Below, piece after piece: positions 2,040 to 41,555 of a stretch of DNA of 64,000 nt (position 1 is the stretch's first letter; each line of letters begins with the position of its first letter). Source of the stretch: Longimicrobiales bacterium (GTDB lineage Bacteria; Gemmatimonadota; Gemmatimonadetes; Longimicrobiales; Gaopeijiaceae); NCBI GenBank assembly GCA_965221265.1, contig OZ244873.1:74013-138012 (forward strand), in the 5' to 3' direction. A model generated the notes under the pieces. It made no database searches and was not told the DNA's origin. It saw nothing but the letters and a program-made list of their open reading frames with translations. Made by a program: the position numbers and the translations under genes.

Positions 2040-3526
2040 TGCTCGTTCTCGACCTCGCACTCAAGTCGCTCCGCAACCGTGCCTTCAGCACCTCGCTCAC
2101 CGTGGGCTCCATCGCCCTCAGCGTCGCGCTCCTGATTGGCGTCGAGAACGTGCGCGAGGGCATGCGCGAGAGCTTCTCCAACACCATCAGCCAGACCGAC
2201 CTCATCGTGGGCACCAAAGGCGGCACGATTCAGCTGCTGCTGTATTCGGTCTTCGGCATGGGGGCGTCGACGGAAAACGTTTCGTGGGAGGCGTACAGGC
2301 AGTGGGCGGAGCACCCCGCGGTCGCGTGGACCATTCCGTACAGCCTGGGGGACAGCCACAGGGGATTCCGGGTCATCGGCACCAACGAGGACTTCTTTCG
2401 CCACTACCGCTACCGCGGAGGTCAGGAGATCGCGCTGGCGGAGGGACGGGCGAACGAGGAACTGTTCGACGTGACGCTGGGCGCGGACGTGGCGGTGGAG
2501 CTGGACTACGCGCTCGGCGACGAGATCTCGGTGACGCACGGGCTCGGCGAGGTGGGCTTCGTGCAGCACGACCACATGCCCTTCACGGTGGTCGGCGTGC
2601 TCGCCAAGACGTTCACCCCCGTGGACCGCGCCATCTACGTGACCCTGGAGGGCATGGAGGCCATCCACTGGGAGGACGGCGCGCCACCCGCGTCGGGCGA
2701 GACCCACGACCACGACCATGAGGCGGCGGCCGCGGACGACGACCACGCCCACGAAGCGGACGACGACGACGACCACGACCACGAGGCGGACGACGACGAC
2801 GCCCACGACCACGAAGCGGACGACGACGACGCCCACGACCATGAGGCGGACGACGACGACGCCCACGAAGTGGACGACGACCACGCTCACGACGACGAGG
2901 CGGAGGCGGCCGCGGCCCCCGCGGACGACGACCACGCCCACCAAGCGGATCTCTCCATCGAAGACGTCGAGGTTACCCAGGTGACCTCCTTCTTCGTGGG
3001 GACCACCAACCGGCGGGACGTGCTCCGGCTGCAGCGCGAAGTCAACGACTTCGAGGACGAGCCCATGATGGCGGTCATCCCCGGGGTGGCCCTCAACGAG
3101 ATGTGGCAGGGGATCGGCTACGCCGAGACCGGGCTCCGACTGGTCACCGTCTTCGTCGTGATGGTGGGGCTGCTGGGCATGCTCGTGTCGCTCTACACCT
3201 CGCTCGACGAACGCCGCCGCGAGATGGCGATCCTGCGCGCCGTCGGAGCCGGACCCGGACGCATCGTCGGGCTGTTGGTGCTCGAGTCGCTGTGCCTGGC
3301 CGGAGCGGGCGCCATCGCGGGATTGGGCTTGGTGTACGCGCTACTCTCGATCGCGCAGCCCATCGTCGAGGCCCAGGTGGGGCTCTTCATCCCCATCCGG
3401 GCCCCCGGATCCATCGAGCTCCTCTTCCTGGGCGCCGTGGTGACGGCCGGCTTCCTGATGGGCTTCGTGCCCGCCCTCAAGGCCTATCGCACGGCGCTGC
3501 ACGACGGGCTGGCGGTGCGGGTGTAG
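2039..3526 (+). CDS. ABC transporter permease, FtsX/MacB-like, with a His/Asp-rich insertion in the extracytoplasmic loop
   Basis: ATG overlaps the ATPase stop (TGATG). It has an N-terminal TM helix, a large periplasmic domain and C-terminal FtsX-type TM helices (LGMLVSLYTSLDERRREMAILRAVGA). Confidence 0.85.
   Translation: MLVLDLALKSLRNRAFSTSLTVGSIALSVALLIGVENVREGMRESFSNTISQTDLIVGTKGGTIQLLLYSVFGMGASTENVSWEAYRQWAEHPAVAWTIPYSLGDSHRGFRVIGTNEDFFRHYRYRGGQEIALAEGRANEELFDVTLGADVAVELDYALGDEISVTHGLGEVGFVQHDHMPFTVVGVLAKTFTPVDRAIYVTLEGMEAIHWEDGAPPASGETHDHDHEAAAADDDHAHEADDDDDHDHEADDDDAHDHEADDDDAHDHEADDDDAHEVDDDHAHDDEAEAAAAPADDDHAHQADLSIEDVEVTQVTSFFVGTTNRRDVLRLQREVNDFEDEPMMAVIPGVALNEMWQGIGYAETGLRLVTVFVVMVGLLGMLVSLYTSLDERRREMAILRAVGAGPGRIVGLLVLESLCLAGAGAIAGLGLVYALLSIAQPIVEAQVGLFIPIRAPGSIELLFLGAVVTAGFLMGFVPALKAYRTALHDGLAVRV
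2704..2950 (+). repeat. 30-bp in-frame tandem repeat (about 5 copies) encoding (H-D-H-E-A-D-D-D-D-A)n inside the permease gene
   Basis: Repeated unit gacgacgacgacgcccacgaccacgaagcggac. Translation: HDHDHEAAAADDDHAHEADDDDDHDHEADDDDAHDHEADDDDAHDHEADDDDAHEVDDDHAHDDEAEA. Confidence 0.85.
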
Positions 3527-4611: not shown

Positions 4612-5666
4612 TGGTCGCAATTGGACTTCTGTTGGCGGGTCTGGTCGTGGCGTGTGCGGGTGCGGAAACGGCCGGCGACATTGCTCTGGTGCCATTCGCT
4701 GAGACCACCGTACCGTTGAGCGAAGACTCCGCTATTCGCCTAGTGGACGAGGGGACCGTCTGCACGACGGAGTCGTATGAGTTCCGCGTTCACTGCACGG
4801 ACGCGAGTGGCTCCCAAGTCTCGTCCTTCGGTCGCCAAGGCGAGGGACCGGGGGAGTTTCGGACGGGCGGCACCCTCGTGCGCGGACCTGACGAGACAAT
4901 CGGTGTCGTCGACATGGATCGGATGTCCGTGTTCGGCCGCGCGGGCACGCTCTTGTCGGAAGTACGTCTTCCACCAGGCTTCGTGAACGGCTCCGCAACG
5001 TTTTCGTCGACGCTGACCGGTGGATGGATGGACTTCATCCAAGGCGGGATGTCCTTCCGTCATGCGGAACTGGACGTGGCATCGGGGGAGGCCGTGTGGG
5101 ACAGGGTCTACCCCCGGCGATATGAGACCGACGCGGAATGCGAGGAGTTGGGAGATTGGCGAGGACTTATTGGAGGGCGATTCTCTCCGGCGCGAGGCGT
5201 GGTTTTTTCGCTATGCCGAGGGCAGCTGTTGTTCTTCGCCAACCGCGACACCCCAACCGGTACGCTTGTCCGTGCCCCGGCGTATGTCCCCGAGCTCCCG
5301 AACGAGGAGGAGGTGCGGGCCTACTTGGAGGAAGCGGGCCCGTTCGCGATGGAGGACTGGTATCGGCGCCAACCCAAGGGGTACTTGCGCGGCGGTCAAC
5401 TGGCGTTCGATGATGGGAGCAGGCTGTGGGCGCTCACGGACCGCGACCCGGGCGATGGCTTCTCCTACTTGGATGTGTACGAGGATTCGGCATTCCGAGG
5501 TACGATCCGCGTGCGTCACCACGCGCGGGGGATCGACCTGCTTGGTTCGACGCTCGTGGTACTCGTCGACCGCCCGGTCGGGCCCCGCGACGCCGACGGC
5601 TTCCCGGACCGTGGAGTGGACTGGTACGACATCGGCGAACTCGGTTTCGGGGTGGACGGACTCTGA
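4612..5666 (+). CDS. NHL-repeat / 6-bladed beta-propeller lipoprotein, paralog A
   Basis: Lipoprotein signal (LLAGLVVACAG). NHL-like motifs FGRQGEGPGEF...IGVVD. Start uncertain (GTG 4591 or 4612). The long ORF 4281..5666 is an upstream read-through artefact. Confidence 0.7.
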
Positions 5667-5688: not shown

Positions 5689-6852
5689 GTGTCGGTGGCG
5701 GGGACAGCTGCGGGCGGCACCCGCCCGACCGCCTCATCGCTGGCGCCACTCCTCTTGGTTGCGATGGCCTGCACAACCCCGGACGATGCGACGGAGCCAA
5801 GGGAAATGGCGATTCCCTTGGCTCCGGTCGCGTCGTCCGAAGCACCCCTGAGCCGCAACACGCGCATCGCCCTCCCGACCGAGGAGACCGCATGCGTTAT
5901 TGACGACTACGAGGTGCGGGTCCATTGCATCCACCGCGACCAACGGACCTCCGCGATCTTCGGGCGACGGGGCGAGGGCCCCGGTGAGTTTCCCGAGTCG
6001 GGCAGCAGGAGGATCGTCCGGGGCCGCAACGCCACCATCGGTGTCGTCACGTCGAGCCGCTTGTCGGTATTCGACGTGTCCGGAGAATTGTTGTCCGACA
6101 TTGGATTGCCGCGGCGCCTAATGCCATCGGCACCGTTCGATTCCATTCTGTCGGGATACTATCTTCAGTTGGATTATCGGCCACCGTACAAGAGGGAATA
6201 TCGGGCAGTCGACTTGGATATCCGAAGTGGGGCGATTCTGTGGGAACGGGTCTACCCGCGCGACATGGCTGCCGGGGCCCGCTGTCCGGGCCCACCCCTG
6301 CCGGAGGGCGTCGCGCCTCCGCGAGGCTTGGCCACTGCAAGGTTCCTCTCCATCGGCGCATTCTTCATTCTGTGCCGTGGGCAATTGCTCTTTCTGGAGG
6401 ATCGAAGAGATGAGGGCGGGACGCTCATCCAAGCCCCCCTGTACGCCGACGTATTCCCCAGCCCGGAGGACGTGGAGCGATACGTGGAACTCTGCGATGC
6501 TCCGGCTCGCCGGCTCCTCGAAATACCCTGCGAGCCCGAGGAATACGCCCGCACGCCCGAGAACTACAGCGCCCAAACCTGGGTGGACGACCAAGACCGC
6601 CTTTGGGCACTCACCAATCGGGATCGCGAGTCGTTCTCTCATCTAGACGTCTTCATCGGCCTGGAGTTTGCGGGATCGGTTCGAGTGCGCCACCGCGCCG
6701 TGGGATTCGACGTGCTCGGTACGACGCTCGTCATCTTGGTGGACCACCCAGTGGGAACAAATGATCCCGACGGAATCCCGGACCGAGGCATCGACTGGTA
6801 CGACATCGGCGAATTGGAGTTGGGGGTGGGCGACCCAGGCCCTCATCGATAG
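5689..6852 (+). CDS. NHL-repeat lipoprotein, paralog B (about 45% identical to A)
   Basis: Same motif pattern (FGRRGEGPGEF, CRGQLLF, DWYDIGEL). Putative GTG start at 5689. The first ~220 aa of the listed ORF 5020.. are out-of-frame read-through of paralog A. Confidence 0.6.
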   Translation: MSVAGTAAGGTRPTASSLAPLLLVAMACTTPDDATEPREMAIPLAPVASSEAPLSRNTRIALPTEETACVIDDYEVRVHCIHRDQRTSAIFGRRGEGPGEFPESGSRRIVRGRNATIGVVTSSRLSVFDVSGELLSDIGLPRRLMPSAPFDSILSGYYLQLDYRPPYKREYRAVDLDIRSGAILWERVYPRDMAAGARCPGPPLPEGVAPPRGLATARFLSIGAFFILCRGQLLFLEDRRDEGGTLIQAPLYADVFPSPEDVERYVELCDAPARRLLEIPCEPEEYARTPENYSAQTWVDDQDRLWALTNRDRESFSHLDVFIGLEFAGSVRVRHRAVGFDVLGTTLVILVDHPVGTNDPDGIPDRGIDWYDIGELELGVGDPGPHR

Positions 6853-7253: not shown

Positions 7254-7261
7254 CTGATTGG
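7254..7261. repeat. 8-bp target-site duplication CTGATTGG (left)
   Basis: The identical octamer directly abuts both IS ends (7254-7261 and 8716-8723). 8 bp is the characteristic TSD length of IS256-family elements. Confidence 0.75.
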
Positions 7262-8715
7262 AGGCTGTCCCAACCGTAGTTGGAGGTTGCGGTGGCTCCC
7301 GTGAGTTTCATGCTACGGATGCGGCCTCGTTCTCGGCAACCGGGGCCGTGAGTTCGTCCAAGTGCGCCTTGAGGATCCACAGATCCCGGTAGCCCATGAT
7401 CCTGCGGTAGCTCCGCTCCGCGTCCATGAACGAGGCGGCCGCCCAACGGACCACCATCGACCCGTCCCGCCAGCGCGTGACGCGCCGCATCCGCTGGCGC
7501 ATGCCGGAGTGGGCGTTGTCGATCAGGTTCGTCGTGCCCAGGCAGCGGCGCAGCGGAGCCGTGAGCCCGAGCTCGCTTACGGTGAAGAGTTCGTCCAGCC
7601 CCTCGCGCAGGCTCCGCGCGGCCGCCGGATGCTCCCTGTCGACCCATGACGCGAATTGCTCGATCCTCGCCCTCCCATCCGTTCCGTCCAGCTTCCAAGC
7701 CGCCCGCAGCACCGCGCGCGCCTGGTCGTGCAGCGTCTTCGGCAAGTGCCCCAGCACATTGCGCATCTTGTGGTTCCGGCAGCGCTGCACCTTGCAGGCC
7801 TTCCCGAAGACCTGGTCGACCGCCTTACGCAGCGCCCTCGAGCCGTCGATGACGAACAACCGCCCCCGCCTCGGGTCCAAGCCGCGCTCGACGAGCTCCT
7901 CGAGCAGGGCCAGCGCGACCGCCGCGTTCTCGCTCGCACCCTCCCGGATGCCGAGAATCCGCTTGTTCCCCTCCGCGTCCACGCCAAGCGCCACCAGCAC
8001 GTGGTGGCCCGCGAACTGGACGCCGTCGAGGTACACGACCACAACGTCCCGGTCGTCCAGCCGCCGCTCGGCCAGCTCCCTCAACCGCTCGCCCGCCGCC
8101 TCGGCCGCCCGCCGGCTCACCGACGACCTGCTCACCCCCGCCGTCTCCGCCATCTCCCCGATCGCCTTCCCGTACGCCCGCGTGCTCACCCCGCGCATCA
8201 GCAGCTCCAGCATCCGGTCCCCGAGCCCCTCCGGACGCCGCAGCATCTCATAGGCCGGGATCGCGACCTCGCCCCCGCCCTTGCGCCTCAGCCGCGGCTT
8301 CTCGACCCGGACGGCTCTGTCGGACAGGTACACACGGCCCTTCTGCCGGCCGTGGTAGGCCACCCCGCCGCCGCGCCGCCTGCCCGGCTGCTTCGGCCCG
8401 GCCACGTCCGACGCGCCAATCTCCAGCACCGCCTCGATCGCCGCCCGCCCGATGACGTCGATGATCGTGTCCAGCGCGTCTCCCGCCCGCACGAACACAT
8501 CCGCCAGCGGCAGCAGATGCCGCCCTTCCCTCGCCAGCAGCTCCCGGGCCGCCCGCTTGTCGGCCCCGCCCCTTCCTTCGTACCTTTTCCTCATCGTGGT
8601 GGTCTCCCGTTGGGGTTGATTGCTCGCCTGATTCTAACCGGAATCAGGCCCCCGGGAGCCACCACGACCTCTTTTCCCCTTCGGAGAACCTCCAACTATT
8701 CCTGGGACACCCTCT
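7262..8715 (-). mobile_element. IS256-family insertion sequence, 1454 bp, apparently intact
   Basis: Imperfect terminal inverted repeats AGGCTGTCCCAACCGTAGTTGGAGGTT (left) versus the reverse complement of the right end AGAGGGTGTCCCAGGAATAGTTGGAGGTT. Single full-length transposase ORF, flanked by the 8-bp TSD. Confidence 0.85.
7308..8594 (-). CDS. IS256-family (Mutator-type) transposase
   Basis: 428 aa. Characteristic IS256 transposase motifs (YLDGVQFAGHHVLVALGVDAEGNKRILG; CRNHKMRNVL; TTNLIDNAHSGMRQRMRRV). Confidence 0.9.
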   Translation of the reverse strand: MRKRYEGRGGADKRAARELLAREGRHLLPLADVFVRAGDALDTIIDVIGRAAIEAVLEIGASDVAGPKQPGRRRGGGVAYHGRQKGRVYLSDRAVRVEKPRLRRKGGGEVAIPAYEMLRRPEGLGDRMLELLMRGVSTRAYGKAIGEMAETAGVSRSSVSRRAAEAAGERLRELAERRLDDRDVVVVYLDGVQFAGHHVLVALGVDAEGNKRILGIREGASENAAVALALLEELVERGLDPRRGRLFVIDGSRALRKAVDQVFGKACKVQRCRNHKMRNVLGHLPKTLHDQARAVLRAAWKLDGTDGRARIEQFASWVDREHPAAARSLREGLDELFTVSELGLTAPLRRCLGTTNLIDNAHSGMRQRMRRVTRWRDGSMVVRWAAASFMDAERSYRRIMGYRDLWILKAHLDELTAPVAENEAASVA

Positions 8716-10018: not shown

Positions 10019-11101
10019 ATGGTGAAAGGGGCGACCCCGGCCGTAACCGGACTCGCCATGGCGGGTCTGGTCGTGGCGTGCGCGGATGCGGGAACGGGCG
10101 GCGACATTGCTCTGGTGCCATTCGCCGAGACCACCGTGCCGTTGAGCGAGGGCTCCGCTATTCGCTTGGTGGACGAGCGGACCGTCTGCACAACGGAGTC
10201 GTACGAGTTCCGCGTCCACTGCACGGACGCGCGAGGGTTTCGGATTTCGTCCTTCGGGCGCCAAGGCGAGGGACCGGGGGAGTTTCGTAGTGGCGGCACC
10301 CTCCTTCGCGGACCCGACGGAACAATCGGTGTCGTCGACAGAGATCGAATGTCCATGTTCAGCGTAGCGGGCGCGCTCCTGTCGGAAGTACTTTTACCGG
10401 CAAGGCTAATCAACGGCTCCGCAACGTTTTCGTCGACGCTGACCGGTGGGTGGATGGATCCCGCTCAGGACGGGATGACGTTCCGTCATGCGGAACTGGA
10501 TGTGGCATCGGGGGAGGCCGTGTGGGACAGGGTCTACTCCCGGCGATACGAAACCGACGCTGGGTGCGAGGAGCTGGGCGATTGGCGAGGACTCATTGGA
10601 GGGCGATTCTCCCCGGCGCGAGGCGTGGTTTTTTCGCTATGCCGAGGGCAGCTGTTGTTCTTCGACCATCGCGACACCCCAACCGGTACGCTTGTCCGTG
10701 CCCCGGCGTATGTCCCCGAGCTCCCGAACGAGGAGGAGGTGCGGGCCTACGTGGAGGAAGCGGGCCCGTTCGCGATGGAGGACTGGTATCGGCGCCAACC
10801 CAAGGGGTACTTGCGCGGCGGTCAACTGGCGTTCGATGATGGGAGCAGGCTGTGGGCGCTCACGGACCGCGACCCGGGCGATGGCTTCTCCTACTTGGAT
10901 GTATACGAGGATTCGGCATTCCGAGGTACGATCCGCGTGCGTCACCACGCGCGGGGGATCGACCTGCTCGATTCGACGCTCGTGGTACTCGTCGACCGCC
11001 CGGTCGGGCCCCGCGACGCCGACGGAATCCCGGACCGCGGCATCGACTGGTACGACATCGGCGAACTGGAGTTCGGGGCCTCGCGCATTCCGACTCCGTA
11101 G
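10019..11101 (+). CDS. NHL-repeat lipoprotein, paralog A' (near-identical to paralog A)
   Basis: ATG at 10019 with lipoprotein signal MVKGATPAVTGLAMAGLVVACAD. The 3' ~550 nt are ~98% identical to paralog A; the 5' ~400 nt are ~88% identical. Confidence 0.75.
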   Translation: MVKGATPAVTGLAMAGLVVACADAGTGGDIALVPFAETTVPLSEGSAIRLVDERTVCTTESYEFRVHCTDARGFRISSFGRQGEGPGEFRSGGTLLRGPDGTIGVVDRDRMSMFSVAGALLSEVLLPARLINGSATFSSTLTGGWMDPAQDGMTFRHAELDVASGEAVWDRVYSRRYETDAGCEELGDWRGLIGGRFSPARGVVFSLCRGQLLFFDHRDTPTGTLVRAPAYVPELPNEEEVRAYVEEAGPFAMEDWYRRQPKGYLRGGQLAFDDGSRLWALTDRDPGDGFSYLDVYEDSAFRGTIRVRHHARGIDLLDSTLVVLVDRPVGPRDADGIPDRGIDWYDIGELEFGASRIPTP

Positions 11102-11312
11102 TCGGCGGTGCGTTGGCCAGCCACGCCGGCTCGCGCGGCCCGAGGCGCGAAGTGCCCCCCCAGCATCACCCGATGACCGCTTTGCCCACTCCCCCCGGCC
11201 GGCTTAACCTGTTCCGCACAGCCCGACGGTCGCCCTCGCCCGAGGAACGACCGACACGGCGCAATACCAAGGCCCCGGCTTGCAGCCCCCGGGCCTCCAG
11301 CGACGACGTCAC

Positions 11313-12614
11313 ATGCGGAAATCCATGACCCCAACAGGATCGAGACCACCAGCGTCCGCCCGGCCCGCGCGCTTCGGATCGGGCGCGCGCCTCCACGCCT
11401 CGGCCGCCTGCCTCCTCCTCGCGGCGTGCGCGGCCCCCGACGCCGTCGTCTCCGAGCTCGCTCTGGAGGAAGTGGCCGTGGAGGCCGCCGCCGGGGCACG
11501 CTTCCCCTCCCTCGAGGGCCACGGCGAGGCGGTCGTGCTGAGTTGGCTCGAACCGCACATGGAGGACGGCGAGGAAGTGTGGGCGCTGAAGGGCGCCCGC
11601 TATGACGACGGCGCGCTGGACAAGCCCTTCGAGGTGACCCGCTCGGGCGGCGACGTCTCGTTTTTCGTGAACTGGGCCGACTTCGCGGTGGTGTGGCCCG
11701 TGGGCGAGGGACGGCTGGCCGCGCACTGGCTCCGGCGGGGCGGGTCGTCCACCTACGACTACGGGGTGCGGGTCGCCTTCTCGGACGACGGCGGGCACTC
11801 GTGGAGCGAACCGTGGACGCCGCACGAGGACGCCACGCCCTCCGAGCACGGGTTCGTGTCGATGTTCGGGCTGGGAGGCGGGAAAGCGGGGATGGTGTGG
11901 CTGGATGGCCGCCGCTTCTTCGAGGCGGATGGCTCGCGCGCGGCCCACCCCCGCATGACCCTGCGCTATCGGACGGCCGGCGCGGATGGGACCGTGACCG
12001 CCGAGGTCGAGCTCGACGACCGCATCTGCGACTGCTGCCAGACCGACGCGGCCATGACCTCCGGCGGGCCCATCGTGGTCTACCGCGACCGCACCGCGGA
12101 CGAGGTGCGCGACATCTCGGCGGGGCGTTTCGTGGACGGGAAGTGGACGGGCGGGGCCCCCGTGCACGACGACGGCTGGGTGATCCCGGGCTGCCCGGTG
12201 AACGGTCCTTCCGTGGCGGCCGTCGGCGATGCGGTGGTGGTGGCGTGGTTCACCGGCGCCAACGACACGCCCAAGGTGCGGGCCGCCTTCTCCCGGGACG
12301 CGGGCGCGACCTTCGGCCCGCCCGTCACGCTCGACCTGGGCAGCCCGGTGGGGCGGGTCGCGGCGGTGATGCCCGAACCCGAGACGGCGCTGGTGACGTG
12401 GCTGGAGGACGGACGCCTGCTCGTGCGCGCCGTCACATCCGACGGGCACCTCGGTCGGGTGCGCCAGGTGGCCACCTCGTCCGACGCGCGCGCCAGCGGC
12501 TTCCCGGCCATGATCGTGGACGCCGCGGACCGCGTGGTCTTCGCGCAAACGGTGGTCGACGAGGGCATCCGCGTGCTGCGGTCGCGGGAACCGTGGACGG
12601 CTTTGCGCGATTGA
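11313..12614 (+). CDS. BNR/Asp-box repeat (sialidase-like, exo-alpha-sialidase fold) lipoprotein
   Basis: Asp-box SDDGGHSW. Signal/lipobox ACLLLAACAAP. Start ATG 11313 (alternative 11325). Confidence 0.7.
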   Translation: MRKSMTPTGSRPPASARPARFGSGARLHASAACLLLAACAAPDAVVSELALEEVAVEAAAGARFPSLEGHGEAVVLSWLEPHMEDGEEVWALKGARYDDGALDKPFEVTRSGGDVSFFVNWADFAVVWPVGEGRLAAHWLRRGGSSTYDYGVRVAFSDDGGHSWSEPWTPHEDATPSEHGFVSMFGLGGGKAGMVWLDGRRFFEADGSRAAHPRMTLRYRTAGADGTVTAEVELDDRICDCCQTDAAMTSGGPIVVYRDRTADEVRDISAGRFVDGKWTGGAPVHDDGWVIPGCPVNGPSVAAVGDAVVVAWFTGANDTPKVRAAFSRDAGATFGPPVTLDLGSPVGRVAAVMPEPETALVTWLEDGRLLVRAVTSDGHLGRVRQVATSSDARASGFPAMIVDAADRVVFAQTVVDEGIRVLRSREPWTALRD

Positions 12615-12647
12615 TGACGCGCGACCCCGCAAGGGTGCGGGCCAGCA

Positions 12648-12762
12648 GTCCGTGGACGAATCCGCCCGAGCACCGAGAGCGGCGGTGCGCCGGGCTGGCA
12701 GGGCGCCTTGAAGGCTCGGGTGCAGCGTTACCGGAACGAAGGGCAACGCCGAGCTTAGCGAA
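12648..12762 (+). repeat. REP/MITE-like intergenic repeat, full copy (~115 bp)
   Basis: gtccgtggacgaatccgcccgagcaccgagagcggcggtgcgccgggctggcagggcgccttgaaggctcgggtgcagcg... The same element occurs in inverse orientation at 17878-17990, and partially at the other sites listed below. Confidence 0.7.
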
Positions 12763-12821
12763 CCAGCGCGGATGCCACACCGCTCGAGTGCCGGGGGGAG
12801 TTCGTCCGCGGGCGGCTCCAA

Positions 12822-12882
12822 GTCCGTGGACGACTCCGCCCGAACACCGAGAGCGGCGGTGCGCCGGGCTGGCAGGGCGCCT
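12822..12882 (+). repeat. REP-like repeat, partial second copy (5' half)
   Basis: gtccgtggacgactccgcccgaacaccgagagcggcggtgcgccgggctggcagggcgcct, about 93% identical to 12648-12708. Confidence 0.7.
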
Positions 12883-12966
12883 CACGCCCTCGCGCAACCC
12901 TACCGGAAGACCATCCTGACCAACCAGCCATTCGGTTCGGCGGGGGCGTTCTGGGCGCTGGCGCTC

Positions 12967-13302
12967 GTGTGGCTGCCGGCGGGCATCGTGGCCGTCTCGC
13001 TCGCCCGCGGCGTGGCCCCCCCGATCACGCCGGAGACGGTGGCGATGCTCCCCGAGGCGCTCCGGTCGCTGGCGGTCACCGCCCCCTTCGGGCTGCCGCT
13101 GGCCCTGGCCTTCCGCGCGATCCGGCGCACGGGCTCCACGCGCGCGGCGTGGACGACGTTCGCGATCCTCGCACCCCTCACATCGTTGGGGGCGCTGGTG
13201 GCCGGCCTGCTTGGTCCGATCGCGATCGCGGTGTGCGCGGCCGTTCTGAGCGCGCCCGCGTGGATCGTGTACGCGGTCGTGCGACGGAACCCGCGATCAT
13301 GA
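12967..13302 (+). CDS. hypothetical small membrane protein
   Basis: Three predicted TM helices in the C-terminal part of ORF 12772..13302. Start is a guess (GTG 12967 or ATG 13045). No recognisable family. Confidence 0.3.
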   Translation: MWLPAGIVAVSLARGVAPPITPETVAMLPEALRSLAVTAPFGLPLALAFRAIRRTGSTRAAWTTFAILAPLTSLGALVAGLLGPIAIAVCAAVLSAPAWIVYAVVRRNPRS

Positions 13303-13548
13303 CCCGGGCTCGCGCCGGCGCGGCGGCGCTTCGTCGCGCGGCGCTTCGATGGTCCCCGCGCAGTAGCTGACGATGCCCGGGAGCCCGCGGCATCGGATGT
13401 CCTCCGTGCGCTCGCGAGCCTCGACGGTATCGAGGTAGACCGTCTTCGTCCGGCTGTACCCGAAGGCCGCCGGGAAATGGAACAAGCCGCTGAGACCGAC
13501 AAAGAGGTAGAACAGTACGCCGAGCGCGATCATCCCCTTCATTTTCAT
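13297..13548 (-). CDS. hypothetical small membrane-anchored protein
   Basis: ATG start with N-terminal TM helix MKMKGMIALGVLFYLFVGLSGLF. Convergent with the previous gene. No family recognised. Confidence 0.3.
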   Translation of the reverse strand: MKMKGMIALGVLFYLFVGLSGLFHFPAAFGYSRTKTVYLDTVEARERTEDIRCRGLPGIVSYCAGTIEAPRDEAPPRRREPGS

Positions 13549-13577
13549 CGGGTGCCGTCCTCGTCCGGAGCTCGCTG

Positions 13578-13630
13578 TCGTGGATGAATCCGCCCGGGCA
13601 CCGGGGCGGGATGCGCCGGGATTGCAGTGG
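13578..13630 (+). repeat. REP-like repeat, partial copy
   Basis: gtggatgaatccgcccgggcaccggggcggg matches the repeat core. Confidence 0.5.
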
Positions 13631-13688
13631 GCACGTCCTCGTTCGGAAACCGGGCGCTACCGGGAGCGCGTGCCGTGGAGCGGCCCGG

Positions 13689-15122
13689 CTATCGACCCGC
13701 CCAACTCATGACAACGCGCCGCAACTCCCCCAAAGTGGGCGGAATTCGGGTGACGCGCGAGGACCGGGTCGCTCCCGCGGCCAGTCGCACGGGCACGGGA
13801 ACGGGTCCCCCGATGGCCTCCTCCACGACGTCGCCGAACTTGGCCGGATGGGCCGTGGCCAGCACCACGCCACGGGCATCCGGATCCTTGGCCAGAGCCC
13901 GCTCCAACGCCAGCCATCCGACCGCGGTGTGGGGATCCATGATGTAGCCATGCTCTTCGAAAGCTCGCCGCATCGCCCCCCGGGTGTCCGCGTCGCTCCA
14001 CGCCGAGCCCGACAGGCACCCGCGCAACCGGGCCAGGTCGCCATCGAAGAGGGCGAGGATGCGCGCGAGGTTCGACGGCGCCCCCACGTCCATCGCACTT
14101 GAGAGCGTGCGCACCGAGGCGCGCGGGGCGTAGTGGCCGGTACGCAGGTACTCCGGCACGACGTCGTTGGCGTTGGTGGCCGTGACGAACCGCACCGCGG
14201 GCAGACCCAGCGCGCGGGCCATGAGGCCGGCCGCCAAGTTGCCGAAGTTGCCGGACGGCACCGAGAAGATGAGCGGCGCGCGAGCGTTGGGGCGCTCCAC
14301 GGGACTCGGGGGCGCGCCGGGATCCGGCCGGGACGCGACACCGGCGGCGGCACCCGCGGGATTGCCGGCCACGGGACTCGGCGGCGCGCCACGGTCCGGC
14401 CGGGTGGGCGTTTGGCCGGCAAGGTGCGCCCAGGCGTGAACGTAGTAGAAGATCTGCGGCAGCAGGCGCCCGATGTTGATCGAGTTCGCGGACGTCAGCG
14501 CGAGGGCCTCCCGCGCGTCCGCATCGCGGAACATCGCCTTCACGAGCCGTTGGCAGTCGTCGAACGCGCCCGCCACCGACACCGCGAGCACCTGGTCGCC
14601 CAGCGTCGTGAACTGCCGTCGCTGGCGCTCACTCACCTGGCCCTCCGGAAAGAGCACCACGACGCGCGTGCCGGGCAGACCCAGAAAGGCGTGCGCCACC
14701 GCCCCGCCGGTGTCGCCCGAGGTGGCCACCATGACCGTGAGCGCGGGCCCGGAGCGACGCAGCCCCGACATGAGGCGGGCCATGAAGCGCGCCCCCACAT
14801 CCTTGAACGCGAGCGTGGGACCGTGGAAGAGCTCCAGCACGCGCGCGCGCGCGCCTAGCGGAACCAACGGCAGCGGGAATCCGAGCGCCTCCCGCACCGC
14901 GGACTCAAGCAGCGAGTCATCCAGCTCGTCGCCGAGAAGATGACGGGCCACGGCCAGCCCGCAACGGACGGGGTCGGCGCCCCGCAGCGCATCGATTTCG
15001 GTCGCGGAAAGAGGCGTGAGACGCTCCGGCGTGAAGAGGCCGCCATCGGGCGCGAGCCCGCTGAAGAGCGCTTCGCGGAAGGAGACGGGCCCGGCGCGCC
15101 CCTCCGTGCTGACGAGTCTCAC
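13689..15122 (-). CDS. thrC: threonine synthase
   Basis: PLP-binding region FKDVGARFMA and SGNFGNLAAG. GTG start overlaps the thrB stop (GTGA). Contains an unusual Pro-rich insertion with an internal direct repeat. Confidence 0.9.
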   Translation of the reverse strand: MRLVSTEGRAGPVSFREALFSGLAPDGGLFTPERLTPLSATEIDALRGADPVRCGLAVARHLLGDELDDSLLESAVREALGFPLPLVPLGARARVLELFHGPTLAFKDVGARFMARLMSGLRRSGPALTVMVATSGDTGGAVAHAFLGLPGTRVVVLFPEGQVSERQRRQFTTLGDQVLAVSVAGAFDDCQRLVKAMFRDADAREALALTSANSINIGRLLPQIFYYVHAWAHLAGQTPTRPDRGAPPSPVAGNPAGAAAGVASRPDPGAPPSPVERPNARAPLIFSVPSGNFGNLAAGLMARALGLPAVRFVTATNANDVVPEYLRTGHYAPRASVRTLSSAMDVGAPSNLARILALFDGDLARLRGCLSGSAWSDADTRGAMRRAFEEHGYIMDPHTAVGWLALERALAKDPDARGVVLATAHPAKFGDVVEEAIGGPVPVPVRLAAGATRSSRVTRIPPTLGELRRVVMSWAGR

Positions 15123-16102
15123 GCCCCCTCCCCTCCGACGTCCTCGACGCGCGCGCCCCTGCGGTTGACGGGCGAGACGAAGGCGTCGCACTCGAGCGCG
15201 GCGGTCTCCTCGAATACCTGGCGGATGCCCGCGGCGACGGCTTCGGCCACGGCGCGTCCCCGGCACAGCGCGAAGACGGAGGGCCCGGACCCGGAGATGG
15301 AGAGCCCGAGCGCGCCGCGCGCGAGCGCCTCCTCCCGGGCTTGCGCGAACCCGGGGATGCGCCCGGCGCGCACCGGCTCCGCGACGACATCGTGGAGGGA
15401 GCGCGAAATGAGGTCCCAGTCGGACGCGTGCAGTCCGGCGACGAAGGCGGCGGTGTTGGCCCACTGGGTGACGGCGGCCTTCAGGGGCACGTGTTCGCCC
15501 AAGGCGCGACGGGCGTCCTCGGTGCGGATGCGCAGGTGCGGGCGGACCACTACCGCCCACAGTCCCGCCGGAATGGGAAGCTCCACCACGTGCGGCGACC
15601 GTCCCGGCAGGACCAGCACGATGCCGCCGTACAGGGCCGGGGCGACGTTGTCGGCGGCGGGCGATCCCGACCCCGCCAGCTCGCCGGCGACCGCGCACCG
15701 GAGTAGTTGGCTCCGCGAGAGACCCGCCCCGGTCACCCGGTCGGCCGCGACCGCTCCCGCCACCGCGCTCGACGCGCTGCCACCCATCCCACCGGCCAAC
15801 GGGATGGCCTTGTGAAGTTCGAGCGCCACCCCGGCGGAATGGGCGTCCGCCACCTCCAGCACGGCCCGGGCGGCCGCCCCGGCGCTGTTGCGGGCGGCGT
15901 CCGTCGGGATGGGCCCCACGTCGCCGGTGACGCGCGTGATGGTCACGCCCGGGTGGGAGGCCGCGCGCGCGACCACCACGTCGCGGGGCCGCTCGATGGC
16001 CATGCCGAAGACGTCGAACCCGCACGCGATGTTGCCGATGGTGGCCGGCGCGGAGACGCGCACGGCGGCCGGGCCGCCGGGACGGCGCGTCTCCCCGGTC
16101 AT
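15119..16102 (-). CDS. thrB: homoserine kinase
   Basis: GHMP-kinase motif PLAGGMGGSASSAVAG; N-terminal NIACGFDVFG. Immediately upstream of thrC. Confidence 0.9.
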   Translation of the reverse strand: MTGETRRPGGPAAVRVSAPATIGNIACGFDVFGMAIERPRDVVVARAASHPGVTITRVTGDVGPIPTDAARNSAGAAARAVLEVADAHSAGVALELHKAIPLAGGMGGSASSAVAGAVAADRVTGAGLSRSQLLRCAVAGELAGSGSPAADNVAPALYGGIVLVLPGRSPHVVELPIPAGLWAVVVRPHLRIRTEDARRALGEHVPLKAAVTQWANTAAFVAGLHASDWDLISRSLHDVVAEPVRAGRIPGFAQAREEALARGALGLSISGSGPSVFALCRGRAVAEAVAAGIRQVFEETAALECDAFVSPVNRRGARVEDVGGEGA

Positions 16103-16240
16103 TCTTCCACCTCGCCGGTCATTTTTCCACCGCCGGTCATCCCTCCGCCTCGCCGGTCACTTTTCCGCCGCCGGTCATCCTGCCGCCTCGCCGGTCATCC
16201 TGCCGCCTCGCCCATCACCCTTCCGCCTCGCCCGTCATCC
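16096..16240. repeat. 20-bp tandem repeat (7-8 units; consensus CCGGTCATCCTGCCGCCTCG on the + strand) between the oxidoreductase stop and the thrB start
   Basis: On the coding (minus) strand each unit is ATGACCGGCGAGGCGGCAGG and ends in ...GGATGA. This gives serial overlapping 7-aa mini-ORFs (MTGEAAG*), the last of which is the thrB start MTGETRR. Confidence 0.85.
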
Positions 16241-16242
16241 AT

Positions 16243-17799
16243 CTACCTGAACACGCGGAGGAAGATTTCGAAGACCCGCCGAACCGCGGGCGTCAGCTTC
16301 CTCTTCTGCCACGCCGTGGACGCGCGCGCGAACGCGTCGCTGCGCGTGGGATAGGGGTGAATGGTGCTTCCGAGCTTGGCCAGACCGATGCCCGCCGTCA
16401 TGGCCAGCGTGATCTCGCCGATCATGTCGCCCGCGTGCGCCGACACCAGCGTCGCCCCCAGGATGCGGTCGCTCCCCTTCTTGAGATGGACGCGCAGGAA
16501 GCCTTCCTCCTCGCCTTCGAGGATGGCTCGGTCGATGTCGTCGATGGACACGGTGATGGTGTCGACCTCGTGGCCGGCCGCGATGGCCTCGTCGCGATGG
16601 AGGCCGACGTGGGCCACCTCCGGGTCGGTGTAGGTCGCCCACGGGATGACGAGGCGGCTGGCGCGGGCGCGCCCGAAAAAGAGGGCGTTTCGGACGGCGA
16701 TGCGGGCCTGGTGGTCGGCGGCGTGGGTGAACTGGTGGCGGGAGGCCACGTCGCCCACCGCGTAGATGGCCCTCGCGGTGGTGCGCAGCCGGTCGTCGAC
16801 CCGGATGCCGGTGCGGTCGTGGGCCACGCCGGCCGCCTCGAGCCCCATGCCGGCGACGTTGGGGGCCCGGCCGGCGGCGACCAGCACCGCCTCGGCCGCG
16901 AGCTCCTCAAGCGCGCCGCCATGCTCGACCTCCAGAATGGTGGCGCCGCCCTCCCGGCGGGCGCGTCGGATCGTGGCCGAGTTGAGGACGCGCACGCCGT
17001 CCGCCTCGATGGCGCGGGTCACGATGGCGGCCGCGTCGGGGTCTTCGCGCGGGAGCGGGTGGGGGTCGGCGTGCGCCACGGTGACTTGGGCGCCGAAGCG
17101 CGCGAAGGTTTGGGAGAGCTCCATCCCGATGGGTCCCGCCCCGATCACGACCACGCGGGGCGGCAGCTCGGTGAGCGAGAAGATGGTCTCGTTGGTGTGG
17201 ACGCCCGGACCCTCCAGACCGGGCACCGGAATGGGGGCCGCGCGCGCGCCGGTGGCGATGATGGCTCGCCGGAAGCGCAGGTCCCGGCCGTTCACGCGAA
17301 GGCGGTCGGGCGCGGTGAATTCGCCGTGGCCTAGGAAGACGTCCACCCCCAGCCCGGCGAACCGGGCCGCCCCGTCGACCGGGCTGATGCGGGCGCGCAA
17401 CCGGCGCATGCGCTCCATGGCGGCGGCGAAGTCGCGCCCGCCGGCGGCGTCCGCCCCCTCCCCCGCCCCACCCGGGCGGCCGTCTCCGGCGACGGCGCGC
17501 GCCCGCCGGGCCGAACCGATGACCGCCTTGGAGGGAACGCACCCGAAGTTGAGGCAGTCGCCGCCCATGAGGTGGCGCTCCACCAGGGCGACCTTCGCGC
17601 CCAGCCCGGCCCCGATGGCTGCGCTCACCAGCCCCCCCGTCCCCGCCCCGACCACCACCAAGTGGTAGCGGTCGCGGGGTTCGGGGTTGCGCCAGTCCGG
17701 CGGGTGCACATGGTCCACCAGCTGGCGGTTGTGCGCGTCATCGGGAGCCACCACCACTCTGTCCGCCGACACGGTCCGTCCCTCCGTTGGTGATCTCAT
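16243..17799 (-). CDS. pyridine nucleotide-disulfide oxidoreductase (mercuric reductase / dihydrolipoamide dehydrogenase-like, class I)
   Basis: FAD-binding GAGTGG, redox-active CLNFGCVPSK, NAD-binding GAGPIGME, C-terminal dimerisation domain. Start ambiguous (ATG 17799 or 17874). Confidence 0.8.
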   Translation of the reverse strand: MRSPTEGRTVSADRVVVAPDDAHNRQLVDHVHPPDWRNPEPRDRYHLVVVGAGTGGLVSAAIGAGLGAKVALVERHLMGGDCLNFGCVPSKAVIGSARRARAVAGDGRPGGAGEGADAAGGRDFAAAMERMRRLRARISPVDGAARFAGLGVDVFLGHGEFTAPDRLRVNGRDLRFRRAIIATGARAAPIPVPGLEGPGVHTNETIFSLTELPPRVVVIGAGPIGMELSQTFARFGAQVTVAHADPHPLPREDPDAAAIVTRAIEADGVRVLNSATIRRARREGGATILEVEHGGALEELAAEAVLVAAGRAPNVAGMGLEAAGVAHDRTGIRVDDRLRTTARAIYAVGDVASRHQFTHAADHQARIAVRNALFFGRARASRLVIPWATYTDPEVAHVGLHRDEAIAAGHEVDTITVSIDDIDRAILEGEEEGFLRVHLKKGSDRILGATLVSAHAGDMIGEITLAMTAGIGLAKLGSTIHPYPTRSDAFARASTAWQKRKLTPAVRRVFEIFLRVFR

Positions 17800-17877
17800 T
17801 CGGTCATGCCCGCGCCCACGCGGCGCCATGATCGCATCCACGCGCCCGGCATTCGAGCGGCTTGGCGTCCGCACTGG

Positions 17878-17990
17878 GCCGCTTCGCTCCGCGTTGCCTC
17901 TCGTCCCGGTGGCACCGCACCCGGGCCTTCAAGGCGCCTTGCCAGCCCGGCAGCGCCGCTCTCGGTGCTCGGGCGGATTCAGCCACGGCC
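17878..17990 (-). repeat. REP/MITE-like repeat, full copy in inverse orientation
   Basis: ccgcttcgctccgcgttgcctctcgtcccggtggcaccgcacccgggccttcaaggcgccttgccagcccggcagcgccgctctcggtgctcgggcggattcagccacggcc is the reverse complement of the 12648-12762 element. Confidence 0.7.
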
Positions 17991-18086
17991 TCGATAACGG
18001 CCCGTGATCGCATCCTCGCGCCCGGCGACCTCCTCCCACCCCGCGTCCACGCGGCCCTCCATCGCTTCAAGCCGGTCACGCCGGGG

Positions 18087-18213
18087 CTCGCGTGTCCGAC
18101 AATCGCATTCGTCGGTCATGTCGGGGCCCACGTGTCCGGCAATCACACTTGGCGGTCATGCGCGCGCCCGCGTGACCCACAATCGCATTCCGACGCCCGG
18201 CCATCCTCGCGTA
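18087..18213. repeat. about 40-bp imperfect tandem repeat x3 in a 520-bp intergenic region
   Basis: cgcgtgtccgacaatcgcattcgtcggtcatg / cacgtgtccggcaatcacacttggcggtcatg / cgcgtgacccacaatcgcattccgacg. A second short repeat gatcgcatcc(a/t)cgcgcccggc occurs at 17831 and 18006. Confidence 0.5.
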
Positions 18214-20815: not shown

Positions 20816-21751
20816 ATGGCACTTGAGCTACAGCAATCCGAATACATTTGGAAGGACGGGTCCTTCGTCCGCTGGAAGGATGCCAACGTGCACCTCCTCT
20901 CGCTGGCCGTGCAGTTCGGCGTTTCGGTCTTCGAGGGCGTCCGCTGCTACGGGGCCGAGGGGTCCGGAGGGCGGCGGGCCATCTTCCGTCTCAACGCGCA
21001 CATCCGCCGGCTGTACAACTCCTGCATCGTCTACCGCATGGTGCCGTCGCACACGCGCGAGGCGCTGGCGGCGGCGTGCGCGGAGGTCGTGGCGAAGAAC
21101 GAGCTCGAGAGCTGCTACATCCGCCCCATGGTGCTGCGCGGCTACGGCGCGGCCGCCCTCGACCCCCGCGCCAGCCCCGTCGAGTCGTACGTCGCGGCGT
21201 GGCCGCTGGAGACCTATCTGGGCGAGGGAGCGCTCGAGCGGGGCGTCGGGGTGTGCGTGTCGTCCTGGCAGCGCGCCGAGCCCAACACCTTCCCCATGCG
21301 CGCCAAGGCGGCCGGCCACTACAACTCGGCCATGCTCATGAAGATGGAGGCCCACGCCAACGGCTACGCGGACGCCATCGCGCTGGGCCCCAACGGTCTG
21401 GTGAGCGAGGGCAGCGGGCAGAACCTCTTCCTGGTGGTGGACGGCGAGCTCGTCACCCCCATCCTCGACGGCACCTCCCTGCAGGGCATCACCCGCGACA
21501 CGGTACTCAAGCTGGCCGCCGACATGGGCATTCCCGCGAGCGAGCAGCTGGTCGCGCGCGAGACCCTCTACACCTGCGACGAGCTCTTCTTCTCGGGCAC
21601 CGCCACCGAGGTCACGCCCATCACCAGCGTCGACAAGATCCCGGTCGGCTCGGGCAAGGCGGGCGAGATCACCCTACGCATCCAACGCCGCTTCATGGAC
21701 ATCGTCAAGCAGCGGACGGATGACCCACATGGGTGGCTGACGCACGTGTAG
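20816..21751 (+). CDS. ilvE: branched-chain amino acid aminotransferase (fold type IV PLP enzyme)
   Basis: Strong class-IV aminotransferase similarity (VFEGVRCY, PLP-Lys region RAKAAGHYNSAM, EVFFSGTATEVTPI). Confidence 0.9.
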   Translation: MALELQQSEYIWKDGSFVRWKDANVHLLSLAVQFGVSVFEGVRCYGAEGSGGRRAIFRLNAHIRRLYNSCIVYRMVPSHTREALAAACAEVVAKNELESCYIRPMVLRGYGAAALDPRASPVESYVAAWPLETYLGEGALERGVGVCVSSWQRAEPNTFPMRAKAAGHYNSAMLMKMEAHANGYADAIALGPNGLVSEGSGQNLFLVVDGELVTPILDGTSLQGITRDTVLKLAADMGIPASEQLVARETLYTCDELFFSGTATEVTPITSVDKIPVGSGKAGEITLRIQRRFMDIVKQRTDDPHGWLTHV

Positions 21752-21862
21752 GGGGGCTTATCGTTCGGGGATGAACCCGCTCGAGCACTGGGAGCGGTGC
21801 CGGGCCGCCGGGAGCATGATCGGCGTCTGGTCCGATCAACTCCGCAGCCCAAGGAGCTGGAG

Positions 21863-22069
21863 ATGAGTGGTGAAGTCGACGAGAAGTCTTTCGATGTGAT
21901 GACGTGGCTGCGAGCGACCCGAGACGAGATTAACGAGCAGATCGCGGACATGTCCGGCGAGGAGCTCCGGGAGTGGCTTGCCCGAGGTCCCTCGGACGTG
22001 TCACGCGGGAGATTGTACGACCGTGCGGGCACGGATCCAGAGGCGGATGACGCTCGCTCCACGGGCTGA
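21863..22069 (+). CDS. hypothetical small acidic protein
   Basis: ATG with an AAGGAG RBS. 68 aa, no recognisable family. Lies at the left margin of the low-GC island. Confidence 0.35.
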   Translation: MSGEVDEKSFDVMTWLRATRDEINEQIADMSGEELREWLARGPSDVSRGRLYDRAGTDPEADDARSTG

Positions 22070-22142
22070 TCCGCCATCAGCGGCTTGCCCACCTTCATTT
22101 TCGCGTTCAAGAACAATAACGCAGCGTTCGACGATGAAATAG

Positions 22143-23882: not shown

Positions 23883-24230
23883 CGTCTCGATCTCCTTGAG
23901 AGCGGGGTGGCAGTGGACTTGGCACGGATCGGCAAGGGAGGCTCGCGGGATCAGGAGAATGGCATCTTACCTCATTTCCAGTTCTCATGCCATCCCGTGG
24001 CCTGTTCGCCGGAATTGATTGGCGAACGAGGCATTGGCCCAGCTTGGGTAATCGGCGACCAGTTTCCATCCGCGACGCTCGGGGAGAACGGCATATCCCC
24101 TCGCGGGCACGCGAGCTCGTCTTGAAGGGGATTCGGCCGACTTCCGGCAGGCCAAACGCGGAGTCACGCGCCGGCGCTTCAGGAAAGGGCGACGAGGCGG
24201 GACGCCGGCGCCGAACCCGCTCCGAACCTG

Positions 24231-24690: not shown

Positions 24691-24906
24691 CGCCCGAGCC
24701 GACGCACTCCACAACCGAACCGAGCCCGCATCCGGCCGAATTCGAGAGGGCGAGGGAGTCGGTACGATGACGTTCGGGCACGAGCGTCAGGCCATCGAGC
24801 ACGCGGAACCCCTTCCTACCTCCTGCTCACACTATCTGCGGGGGGGATTCGTCCTTACCTTGGGTCGAGGATCAGCCATCCATCGCGACAACACGGGTAG
24901 CCCATC

Positions 24907-35688: not shown

Positions 35689-35811
35689 GGCGTGCTCCGG
35701 GCGCGGGGGATCTTCGTGCAATGTGGGACGCCGGCAGCCGAGCGTCCACGGGCCGTCAAGCGGTTTCGTTGGAGCGGCCCGGCGCCCCGCCCCTCTCGGT
35801 GCGCCGCGGAC

Positions 35812-41518: not shown

Positions 41519-41555
41519 ATCCGCCCGAGCGGCGAGAGCCGCGTGGCCCCACAGC
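41509..41555 (+). repeat. REP-like repeat, partial copy
   Basis: gtggatgaatccgcccgagcggcgagagccgcgtgg. Confidence 0.55.

Follow-up and report, generated by a model that had tools for sequence, protein, structure and literature searches.

The stretch of Longimicrobiales DNA analyzed here (64,000 nt of contig OZ244873.1, hereafter the window; G+C content about 70%) carries a short repeat that recurs in the spaces between genes and probably represents a family of miniature inverted-repeat transposable elements (MITEs). A preliminary description of the window had listed nine positions sharing a core sequence in both orientations, and we used these positions to build a core profile. A search of the window with nhmmer recovered all nine, with E values from 3e-13 to 7e-9, at 12647, 12821, 13577, and 41507 on the plus strand and at 17991, 43624, 51293, 63501, and 63654 on the minus strand. 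Weaker matches at 21763 and 60220 (plus) and 35820 (minus) corresponded to relics. The 14-mer core GTGGATGAATCCGC was found 12 times when up to two mismatches were allowed, as compared to 0.57 matches expected from dinucleotide shuffles, of which 0 of 100 reached 12. The window thus holds nine clear copies and three weak relics, distributed over both strands as follows.

12646 to 12815, plus strand: full-length copy of 170 nt with both termini (profile positions 2 to 168, E = 3.6e-46)
12820 to 12882, plus strand: truncated copy, element positions 1 to 63 (profile positions 2 to 63, E = 7.8e-13)
13575 to 13628, plus strand: diverged left-arm relic (E = 7e-9), between the stop of a thrC-like gene (13689) and the start of a small open reading frame (ORF) at 13297-13548
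17845 to 17992, minus strand: long copy, element positions 1 to about 148, right terminus lost (E = 2.6e-38)
21763 to 21797, plus strand: weak left-arm relic (E = 2.3e-5), 12 nt past the stop of the aminotransferase ORF 20816-21751
35788 to 35820, minus strand: very weak left-arm relic (E = 8e-3)
41505 to 41547, plus strand: left-arm relic, whose GGATGA contains the TGA stop (41516-41518) of the ORF 39065-41518
43581 to 43626, minus strand: mini-derivative of 46 nt with both termini and CTAG on each side (43577-43580 and 43627-43630)
51213 to 51294, minus strand: derivative copy with a clear left arm (51247-51294) and a weak remnant of the right terminus down to 51213
60220 to 60256, plus strand: weak left-arm relic (E = 1.4e-3), in the spacer between the ORFs 59587-60204 and 60294-60986
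63416 to 63502, minus strand: internally deleted copy of 87 nt with both termini (profile positions 2 to 38 plus 112 to 167)
63594 to 63655, minus strand: truncated copy, element positions 1 to 63, in the divergent spacer that also holds the 87-nt copy

To place the copies relative to genes, we used gene calls based on G+C content at third codon positions (GC3) and checked against Pfam. All copies of the window were intergenic, as had been proposed, except the one at 41505-41547, which replaces the last four codons of a MetX/MetY-like fusion ORF (39065-41518) and gives it its TGA. Several long reading frames extend across copies, for example the one with an ATG at 12772; these are artefacts of the high G+C content. 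The full-length copy starts 32 nt past the stop of the ORF 11280-12614, the copy at 17845-17992 sits within an array of 40-nt tandem repeats that precedes an lpd-like gene, and the copy at 51213-51294 adjoins, on the upstream side, the ribosome-binding site (RBS) and ATG (51307) of a plus-strand ORF. Three local clusters are apparent, at 12646-13628, 41505-43626, and 63416-63655.

Alignment of the copies together with their flanks revealed that the unit is an imperfect palindrome of 170 bp, 5'-CAGTCCGTGGATGAATCCGCC...GGGGGGAnTTTGTCCACGGGCTG-3' at 12646-12815, with the consensus 5'-CAGTCCGTGGATGAATCCGCCCGAGCACCGAGAGCGGCGAGGCGCCGGGCTGGCAAGGCGC...GCCGCTCGAATGCCGGGGGGAnTTTGTCCACGGGCTG-3', rather than the 115-bp unit initially proposed. 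Accordingly, the two copies first taken to be full are both longer than described, and the second of them (17845-17992) is without its right terminus. The ends, which read CAGTCC.../...GGGCTG, were sharply defined in an alignment of 19 full copies (74% identity per column) and form imperfect terminal inverted repeats (TIRs), CAGTCCGTGGAYRAATCCGCC / GGGGGGAnTTYGTCCRCGGGCTG. The terminal 17 nt at the 5' end pair with the terminal 18 nt at the 3' end, with 95.7% of the cells paired in the 19 copies. Over the entire consensus structure of the same copies, we found 57 pairs with 95.9% of the cells paired and 12 pairs with compensatory changes, mostly in the apical hairpin. None of 500 shuffles matched this pairing, and slid registers paired in only 32 to 39% of the cells. 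The element is conserved as a nucleotide palindrome and not as a reading frame, in units ranging from 46 to 245 nt.

When analyzed as a single strand, the copy at 12646-12815 was predicted to fold into one rod-like hairpin from end to end (-104.5 kcal/mol, z = -5.1), and the fold was similar under DNA energy parameters. Thus, according to the energy model, a hairpin of about -100 kcal/mol can form when the unit is transcribed or single-stranded. Solo arms, in contrast, gave no significant fold (z = -0.07 to -1.6). The palindrome belongs to the whole element, with the left arm pairing with the right, and the previously noted 14-mer near-palindrome is a reflection of the two TIRs rather than the structural feature.

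The two strands of the element differ in how well they fold. The strand as written in the consensus was the better-folding one in 28 of 28 full copies, with a mean difference of 19 to 20 kcal/mol. This was further supported by composition-controlled z-scores of -8.4 for the better strand against -4.8 for the other, with the same strand ahead in 16 of 17 copies. Variable pairs switch between Watson-Crick and G.U on the better-folding strand, while a structure-free comparison of the arms found nearly symmetric transition mismatches (81 versus 69). A count of 91 G.U versus 8 A.C cells was rejected as a measure of strand asymmetry, because it was overstated by a structure that had been predicted on that very strand. 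The asymmetry could go back to the founder copy, or it could hint at a single-stranded DNA or RNA stage.

Two-ended copies fall into size classes of about 46, 53, 55, 70, 79, 87, 170, and 245 nt, each with both termini. The largest class consists of the 170-nt unit plus a conserved, AT-richer insert of 75 nt in the 3' arm, which carries the invariant motif ACATGACA-N4-GTAA-N-GT-N3-CTT-N-ACA. It was found at positions 5679-5924 of L044, one of the loci fetched from other genomes (numbered with the prefix L), and in 11 other loci. By eye, the insert looked like a promoter, but it failed a sigma-70 scan. The classes shorter than 170 nt are internal deletions.

87 nt: window, 63416-63502
about 79 nt: L034
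70 nt: L052
55 nt: L064 and L065
53 nt: L003
46 nt: window, 43581-43626

Thus, several of the copies that had been labeled partial (43581-43626, 63416-63502, and probably 51213-51294) are internal-deletion derivatives that keep both termini. One-ended relics of either arm were also found, and which arm prevailed varied with the end used as the query. In the loci fetched first, left-end-only relics seemed to be in excess; this was dismissed as an ascertainment effect, because a left-arm pattern had served as the query and a search with the right end returned right-end-only relics. Within the window, the one-ended relics are six left to none right, an excess that is partly due to the mini-forms. 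The process of decay can be followed by comparing three related genomes at an orthologous site, where the element is full in L028, has lost position 65 through the right end in L033, and is truncated otherwise in L021, with flanks that are still 85 to 93% identical. These states of a single site indicate decay by deletion.

We then analyzed the sequences at which the copies sit. The left tetranucleotide, directly before CAGTCC, is mostly CTAG and otherwise TTAG, GTAG, CTAA, CCAG, or TCAG; the right one, directly after GGGCTG, is likewise mostly CTAG and otherwise CTAA, CCAG, TCAG, TTAG, or CTAC. The two flanking tetranucleotides were identical in 8 of 34 two-ended copies, whereas permutation gave an expectation of 3.4 (p = 0.006). 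Non-palindromic pairs made up five of the eight (CTAA three times, CCAG, and TCAG), against an expectation of 1.15 (p = 0.002), and the three CTAA/CTAA cases belong to different sub-lineages of the element. Only one case fitted an extension of the inverted repeat by the tetranucleotides. Tandem copies are spaced by exactly 4 nt in L013 and also in the window, where CTCC (12816-12819) separates the copies at 12646-12815 and 12820-12882. Furthermore, we found orthologous sites that are filled in one genome and empty in another: L003 exceeds L008 by exactly 53 + 4 nt, a mini-copy and four additional nucleotides, between flanks that are 91% identical, and a 245-nt copy present in L013 is missing from L052. 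Together, these features are characteristic of an element that inserts at a YTAR-like site and duplicates 4 bp of its target, in the manner of IS5, which generates 4-bp 5'-YTAR-3' duplications (PMC5009759).

The preference for CTAG bears on where the copies are found. CTAG occurs 15 times in the window as compared to 176 times expected from base composition, a 12-fold depletion, and the sites that are left often coincide with TAG stops. The mini-derivative at 43581-43626 lies between two of the 15, both of them TAG stops of convergent genes, one encoding a BlaR1-like protein (42129-43580, plus strand) and the other an S9 peptidase (43627-45723, minus strand). The site before insertion can be reconstructed as TCCTAGGT, in which a single CTAG would have been common to both convergent stops; duplication of this shared CTAG would therefore have kept both of them. 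In other loci, 16 of 41 stop-triplet flanks were the real stop of a long coding ORF under strict GC3 criteria, and about seven more were borderline, while two-ended copies lay in convergent versus divergent contexts in a ratio of 4 to 2. Thus, the earlier remark that copies often directly follow stop codons is correct, and we attribute it to the target, because CTAG is rare and often supplies a TAG stop.

CCAG and CTGG are abundant in the window (357 and 355 occurrences). Together with the scarcity of CTAG, this is compatible with very-short-patch-type repair or with restriction avoidance. By analogy with very-short-patch repair, known in Escherichia coli, the frequent CCAG and CTGG flanks of the copies may be CTAG eroded by such a process.

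Next, we determined the distribution of the family. A 22-nt degenerate core, scanned over one genome per species, matched 51 stretches, about 43 of which were true copies, nearly all in metagenome-assembled genomes (MAGs) of Longimicrobiales, Gemmatimonadetes, or Gemmatimonadaceae; the rest lay within histidine-kinase genes or in actinobacteria and were due to chance. A right-end pattern returned 22 metagenome contigs, of which about 21 were confirmed by the element profile. Overall, the family comprises about 60 loci in more than 25 Gemmatimonadota MAGs, mainly of Longimicrobiales, and in metagenomes, whereas no match to it came from viral contigs, plasmids, Rfam, or the searchable literature. 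Nucleotide-level alignment of the window with the fetched loci was confined to the element, with 77 to 85% identity, which is also the range of the copy at 12646-12815 against copies in other genomes. These results bear out the view of a dispersed, lineage-specific family and rule out a restriction to one locus, the outcome that had been named beforehand as refuting it. Exact core matches numbered five in the 64-kb window as compared to one to four per complete relative of 4 to 5 Mb, so that the high local density reflects either a burst in the source genome or a hotspot in the window.

Copies were also present in bins labeled Gammaproteobacteria (L008, L014, L019, and L043) and Binatia (L017). 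L008 and L014 match L045, L017 matches L026, and L019 has a coverage like that of a bin from the same sample. These contigs are probably mis-binned, because some of their flanks or samples are common to Gemmatimonadota bins.

We interpret the family as a previously undescribed, lineage-specific MITE, that is, a non-autonomous transposon bounded by TIRs, and assign this reading a probability of about 0.72. The unit is non-coding and shorter than 300 bp, it ends in TIRs and is flanked by duplications of fixed length, its dispersed copies have unrelated flanks, and its sites are polymorphic for presence and absence. Of the two parts of the label REP/MITE-like given to the repeat before, the MITE part is thus upheld by the TIRs, the 4-nt flanking duplications, the two-ended deletion derivatives, and the filled and empty sites, while the part referring to repetitive extragenic palindromic (REP) sequences is contradicted by solo arms that are not palindromes. 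According to the mechanism that we propose, a transposase encoded elsewhere would have moved the 170-bp non-coding unit, which would have inserted, as IS5-type elements do, into tetranucleotides resembling CTAG (YYAG/CTAR) and duplicated 4 bp. Owing to the rarity of CTAG in a genome of 70% G+C and its overlap with TAG stops, the element would have landed at gene ends, including CTAG stops common to convergent genes, and also next to earlier copies with a CTAG at their edge. Later decay by internal or terminal deletion would have left two-ended mini-forms and dead one-arm relics. Our data demonstrate the anatomy of the element, its flanking duplications and target context, its spread over genomes, and its presence or absence at orthologous sites; the class of the transposase, like any present-day activity of the family, is something we infer.

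Several observations weigh against this reading. In neither the window nor the 73 fetched loci (about 0.6 Mb in all) did we find an autonomous element sharing these termini, and the sole transposase of the window belongs to an IS256-family insertion sequence, whose inverted repeats are unrelated and whose duplication is 8 bp long. In 26 of the 34 two-ended copies, the flanks are decayed or do not match, and the tetranucleotides of the L003/L008 pair all differ (flanks CTGC and TCAG, empty site CTGG). A duplication of only the 2-bp TA within CTAG, as in IS630, is another reading of the flanks, although it is less well supported. Last, a plain cut-and-paste MITE needs neither the apical compensatory changes nor the better fold of one strand.

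Three candidate sources of mobility were rejected. The IS256-family element was discarded as the mobilizer on account of its inverted repeats and 8-bp duplication, which are unrelated to the repeat family. Two candidate autonomous copies turned out to be a housekeeping-type XerC/D gene located between two copies (L067) and a two-component operon between a copy and a relic (L070).

In its behavior, the family most resembles the palindromic MITEs of the ERIC, Correia, and RUP type and IS5-derived MITEs. With the latter it shares a small non-coding unit, TIRs, and a 4-nt flanking duplication centered on CTAG/CTAA. In contrast, we found no IS5-family partner with these termini, the frequent YCAG flanks (CCAG and TCAG) exceed the strict YTAR, and the termini begin with CAG, while IS5-group ends usually begin with GG or GA. 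ERIC (also IRU) sequences of enterobacteria and Correia (CREE) elements of Neisseria are intergenic imperfect palindromes of 100 to 170 bp that come in several indel size classes, insert at targets containing TA, and can form long RNA hairpins when co-transcribed; documented features of these families include RNase processing, IHF sites, and promoters. The present family is similar in its palindromic intergenic unit, its size classes, and its TA-containing target, as well as in that no autonomous partner is known, as for ERIC. It differs in its unrelated sequence, in its occurrence in another phylum (Gemmatimonadota), and in a duplication that fits 4 bp better than TA. RUP of Streptococcus pneumoniae is a MITE with inverted ends and a length of about 100 nt, for which mobilization in trans by IS630-Spn1 at TA-containing sites has been proposed; IS630 prefers CTAG, and IS630-type insertion duplicates TA only. 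The family described here likewise has inverted ends and TA-containing sites, but its CTAA/CTAA, TCAG/TCAG, and CCAG/CCAG pairs favor a 4-bp duplication.

Instead of a decaying parasite, the family might be a long-lived single-strand hairpin element of Gemmatimonadota that is selected on the fold of one strand, either as a REPIN-like sequence served by a domesticated enzyme or as an insulator acting at the RNA level at gene ends, and to which, as a dispersed attachment site, a tyrosine-integrase element (see below) also attaches. We regard this combination as rather unlikely. If it were true, the copy density in the genome of the window, about 50 times that of related complete chromosomes, would be the trace of a recent expansion.

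Taken alone, a REPIN-like element with two inverted arms would be moved or maintained as a single-stranded DNA hairpin by a domesticated HUH enzyme (RAYT-type) or an IS200/IS605-type enzyme and be inherited vertically over long times. The whole unit is indeed a long hairpin, similarly so with DNA parameters, and one strand folds better; Watson-Crick and G.U pairs replace one another at its variable positions, and single arms are common. Likewise, the absence of an orientation preference relative to genes, the tag-like NTAG 5' of the hairpin, and a strong sequence conservation over many species at few copies per genome would all suit such an element. However, the nearly symmetric transition mismatches between the arms (81 versus 69) do not speak for it, and the flanking NTAG, mostly CTAG, behaves as a duplicated target. 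Direct, non-palindromic duplications of 4 nt (CTAA three times, TCAG, and CCAG) are unexpected for HUH-mediated insertion, and no Y1/HUH or RAYT gene was detected among the 24 window ORFs scanned. Moreover, REPs are defined as imperfect palindromes of 20 to 40 bp with a GTAG or CGTC tag (PMC3733652), whereas solo arms of our family are not palindromes at all (z = -0.07 to -1.6). Thus, as compared to REP/REPIN-RAYT systems, the extragenic location, the long two-arm hairpins with many single arms, the TAG-ending tetranucleotide by the arm, and the cross-species conservation are alike, but the arms are not palindromic REPs and direct flanking duplications are present. By the definition through tagged palindromes of 20 to 40 bp, the family is not a REP/REPIN, and a REPIN-like origin seems unlikely to us. 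The pattern of IS200/IS605-derived PATEs, which have separate subterminal hairpins without inverted repeats or duplication and insert 3' of a fixed tetra- or pentanucleotide, does not apply either; here, the ends pair together and duplications are present, and the conserved NTAG of the left flank is the only compatible feature.

We also considered that the repeat might be a multi-copy structured non-coding RNA or cis-regulatory RNA under host selection, such as a 3'-UTR stabilizer, an RNase target, or a factor-independent terminator, with the mobility features being secondary. The conserved rod with its compensatory changes, the G.U pairs favoring one strand, and the position of copies directly after stops and between convergent genes are in line with this. 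In contrast, an Rfam search at E values up to 10 returned only chance matches of 13 to 14 bits, as compared to gathering thresholds of 55 to 80 bits, and a scan of the window at the gathering thresholds detected nothing but a SAM riboswitch away from the repeats. No sigma-70-like promoter or T-tract terminator was found in or beside the copies examined (12500-13700 of the window and 5600-6000 of L044). The hairpin is not followed by a T tract. The family is neither a known Rfam RNA nor an intrinsic terminator. After masking the copies and re-calling the genes, two-ended copies were oriented equally in both ways relative to their neighbors (five same/same and six opposite/opposite), a result that speaks against a host-imposed role of the RNA of one particular strand. 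An apparent preference for the sense orientation vanished in this analysis, as it came from ORFs reading through copies. A role as 5'-UTR or riboswitch-like leader was rejected as well, because only two copies (13575-13628 and 51247-51294) abut an RBS, in reverse, and the others are located after stops or between convergent genes without bias. The many truncated copies, the faster change of the element than of its flanks, through deletions, at orthologous sites, and the CTAG target as an explanation for the association with stop codons further reduce the RNA reading to an improbable one.

In two fetched loci, the repeat is joined to a tyrosine-integrase element, which spans about 1877-3221 in L005 and 4604-5944 in L051 and contains an integrase gene (Phage_integrase, 4e-17). 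The junction lies in both after GGCTGGCA, at element position ~56, and the outer flanks differ between the two loci. An integrase-less relative that shares the 16-mer GGACTGCACGATCTGC is found at the same junction in five loci (L002, L006, L017, L026, and L039), and in L068, it has the inverse orientation and adjoins the repeat on its opposite side, from position ~43. The junction falls within an internal palindrome, GCGCC-N10-GGCGC. This arrangement suggests a second mobile element that uses the internal palindrome of the MITE as an integration site; the element with the 16-mer GGACTGCACGATCTGC was not found in the window.

The same junctions could mean that the repeats themselves are att-type sites for tyrosine recombinases, with partial copies being duplicated att halves left behind by integrative elements. 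The single internal joining position in loci with different outer flanks, its use by the integrase-less module in five loci and, inverted, in L068, and its location within a palindrome are in line with this reading. However, the 16-mer of the integrase element is absent from the window, Pfam scans of the window detected no integrase, and the ends of the window relics vary (positions 38 to 63). It also leaves the TIRs, the 4-nt duplications, and the two-ended mini-forms unexplained, and a second mobile element targeting the MITE is more likely. Similarly to integron attC sites such as the VCRs, the copies are imperfect palindromes of comparable length that follow ORFs and fold better on one strand. 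In contrast to them, they show no R''/R' core sites (RYYYAAC/GTTRRRY) on reading of the termini and flanks, with no dedicated pattern scan having been run, they are dispersed on both strands instead of forming one co-oriented array, and the window contains no intI. The family is not an attC site, and we consider an att-type origin very unlikely. Last, local duplication or a chance likeness in G+C-rich DNA, to which the three local clusters might point, has a negligible probability in view of the 12 core matches against 0.57 in shuffles, the copies with unrelated flanks in more than 25 other genomes, and the alignment of nothing but the element between the window and the fetched loci.

For annotation, the MITE reading means that about a dozen short intergenic stretches of the window, and similar ones in Gemmatimonadota MAGs, would be labeled as one family instead of as candidate regulatory RNAs or spurious N-terminal extensions. 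The preference for CTAG would provide a simple reason for repeats positioned exactly at stops in high-G+C genomes, and the case of the convergent genes would illustrate how insertion between overlapping stops can spare both of them. Filled and empty sites could serve as strain-level markers in a poorly studied phylum, and the family may account for some mis-binned contigs, given the identical flanks in same-sample bins labeled Gammaproteobacteria or Binatia. Only three features might set the family apart from an ordinary MITE, namely the strand-specific fold, the high local density, and the association with an integrase.

Several other features of the window were noted. The ORF 39065-41518, which ends in a repeat relic, encodes 817 amino acids with an alpha/beta-hydrolase (MetX-like) fused to a Cys_Met_Meta_PP domain (O-acetylhomoserine sulfhydrylase-like), and it is directly preceded by the SAM riboswitch (RF00162, 81.7 bits) at 38944-39067 on the plus strand. 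Downstream, a gene for a BlaI-like repressor (41689-42132) is followed by the gene for the BlaR1/M56-like sensor (42129-43580), which has a TonB Plug domain. Within the segment 41560-43580, the two genes are preceded by TTGACA-N17-TACACT and by the palindrome TACGAAGTTCTTCGTGA, which are likely to act as promoter and operator.

The IS256-family insertion sequence is intact (7261-8714) and consists of a Transposase_mut ORF (7308-8594, minus strand) between 28-nt inverted repeats starting with GAGGCTGTCCCAACC, with a perfect 8-bp duplication, TCTGATTG. It lies amid paralogous segments, namely 4613-4912 and 10039-10338 (86% identity) as well as 5503-5652, 6677-6826, and 10929-11078. The 620-nt spacer that precedes the lpd-like gene is filled with the 40-nt tandem repeats (17822-18190), among which the long copy is inserted, and tandem repeats of 19 to 20 nt occur separately at 16095-16248, with the motif ATGACCG common to both arrays. 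A stretch of low G+C content (22001-26460, 55% versus about 70%), with the weak relic at 21763 at its left edge, contains a 579-amino acid ORF without a Pfam match (22143-23882, minus strand) and then an ORF for an AAA_21/AbiEii-type ATPase (24907-26460); it may be a horizontally acquired defense-type islet. Four tandem repeats of 273 nt (28718-30015), probably a repeated domain, are located inside an ORF of 1195 amino acids (26653-30240), and a repeat with a 15-nt period (2672-2970) lies inside the ORF 1931-3526.

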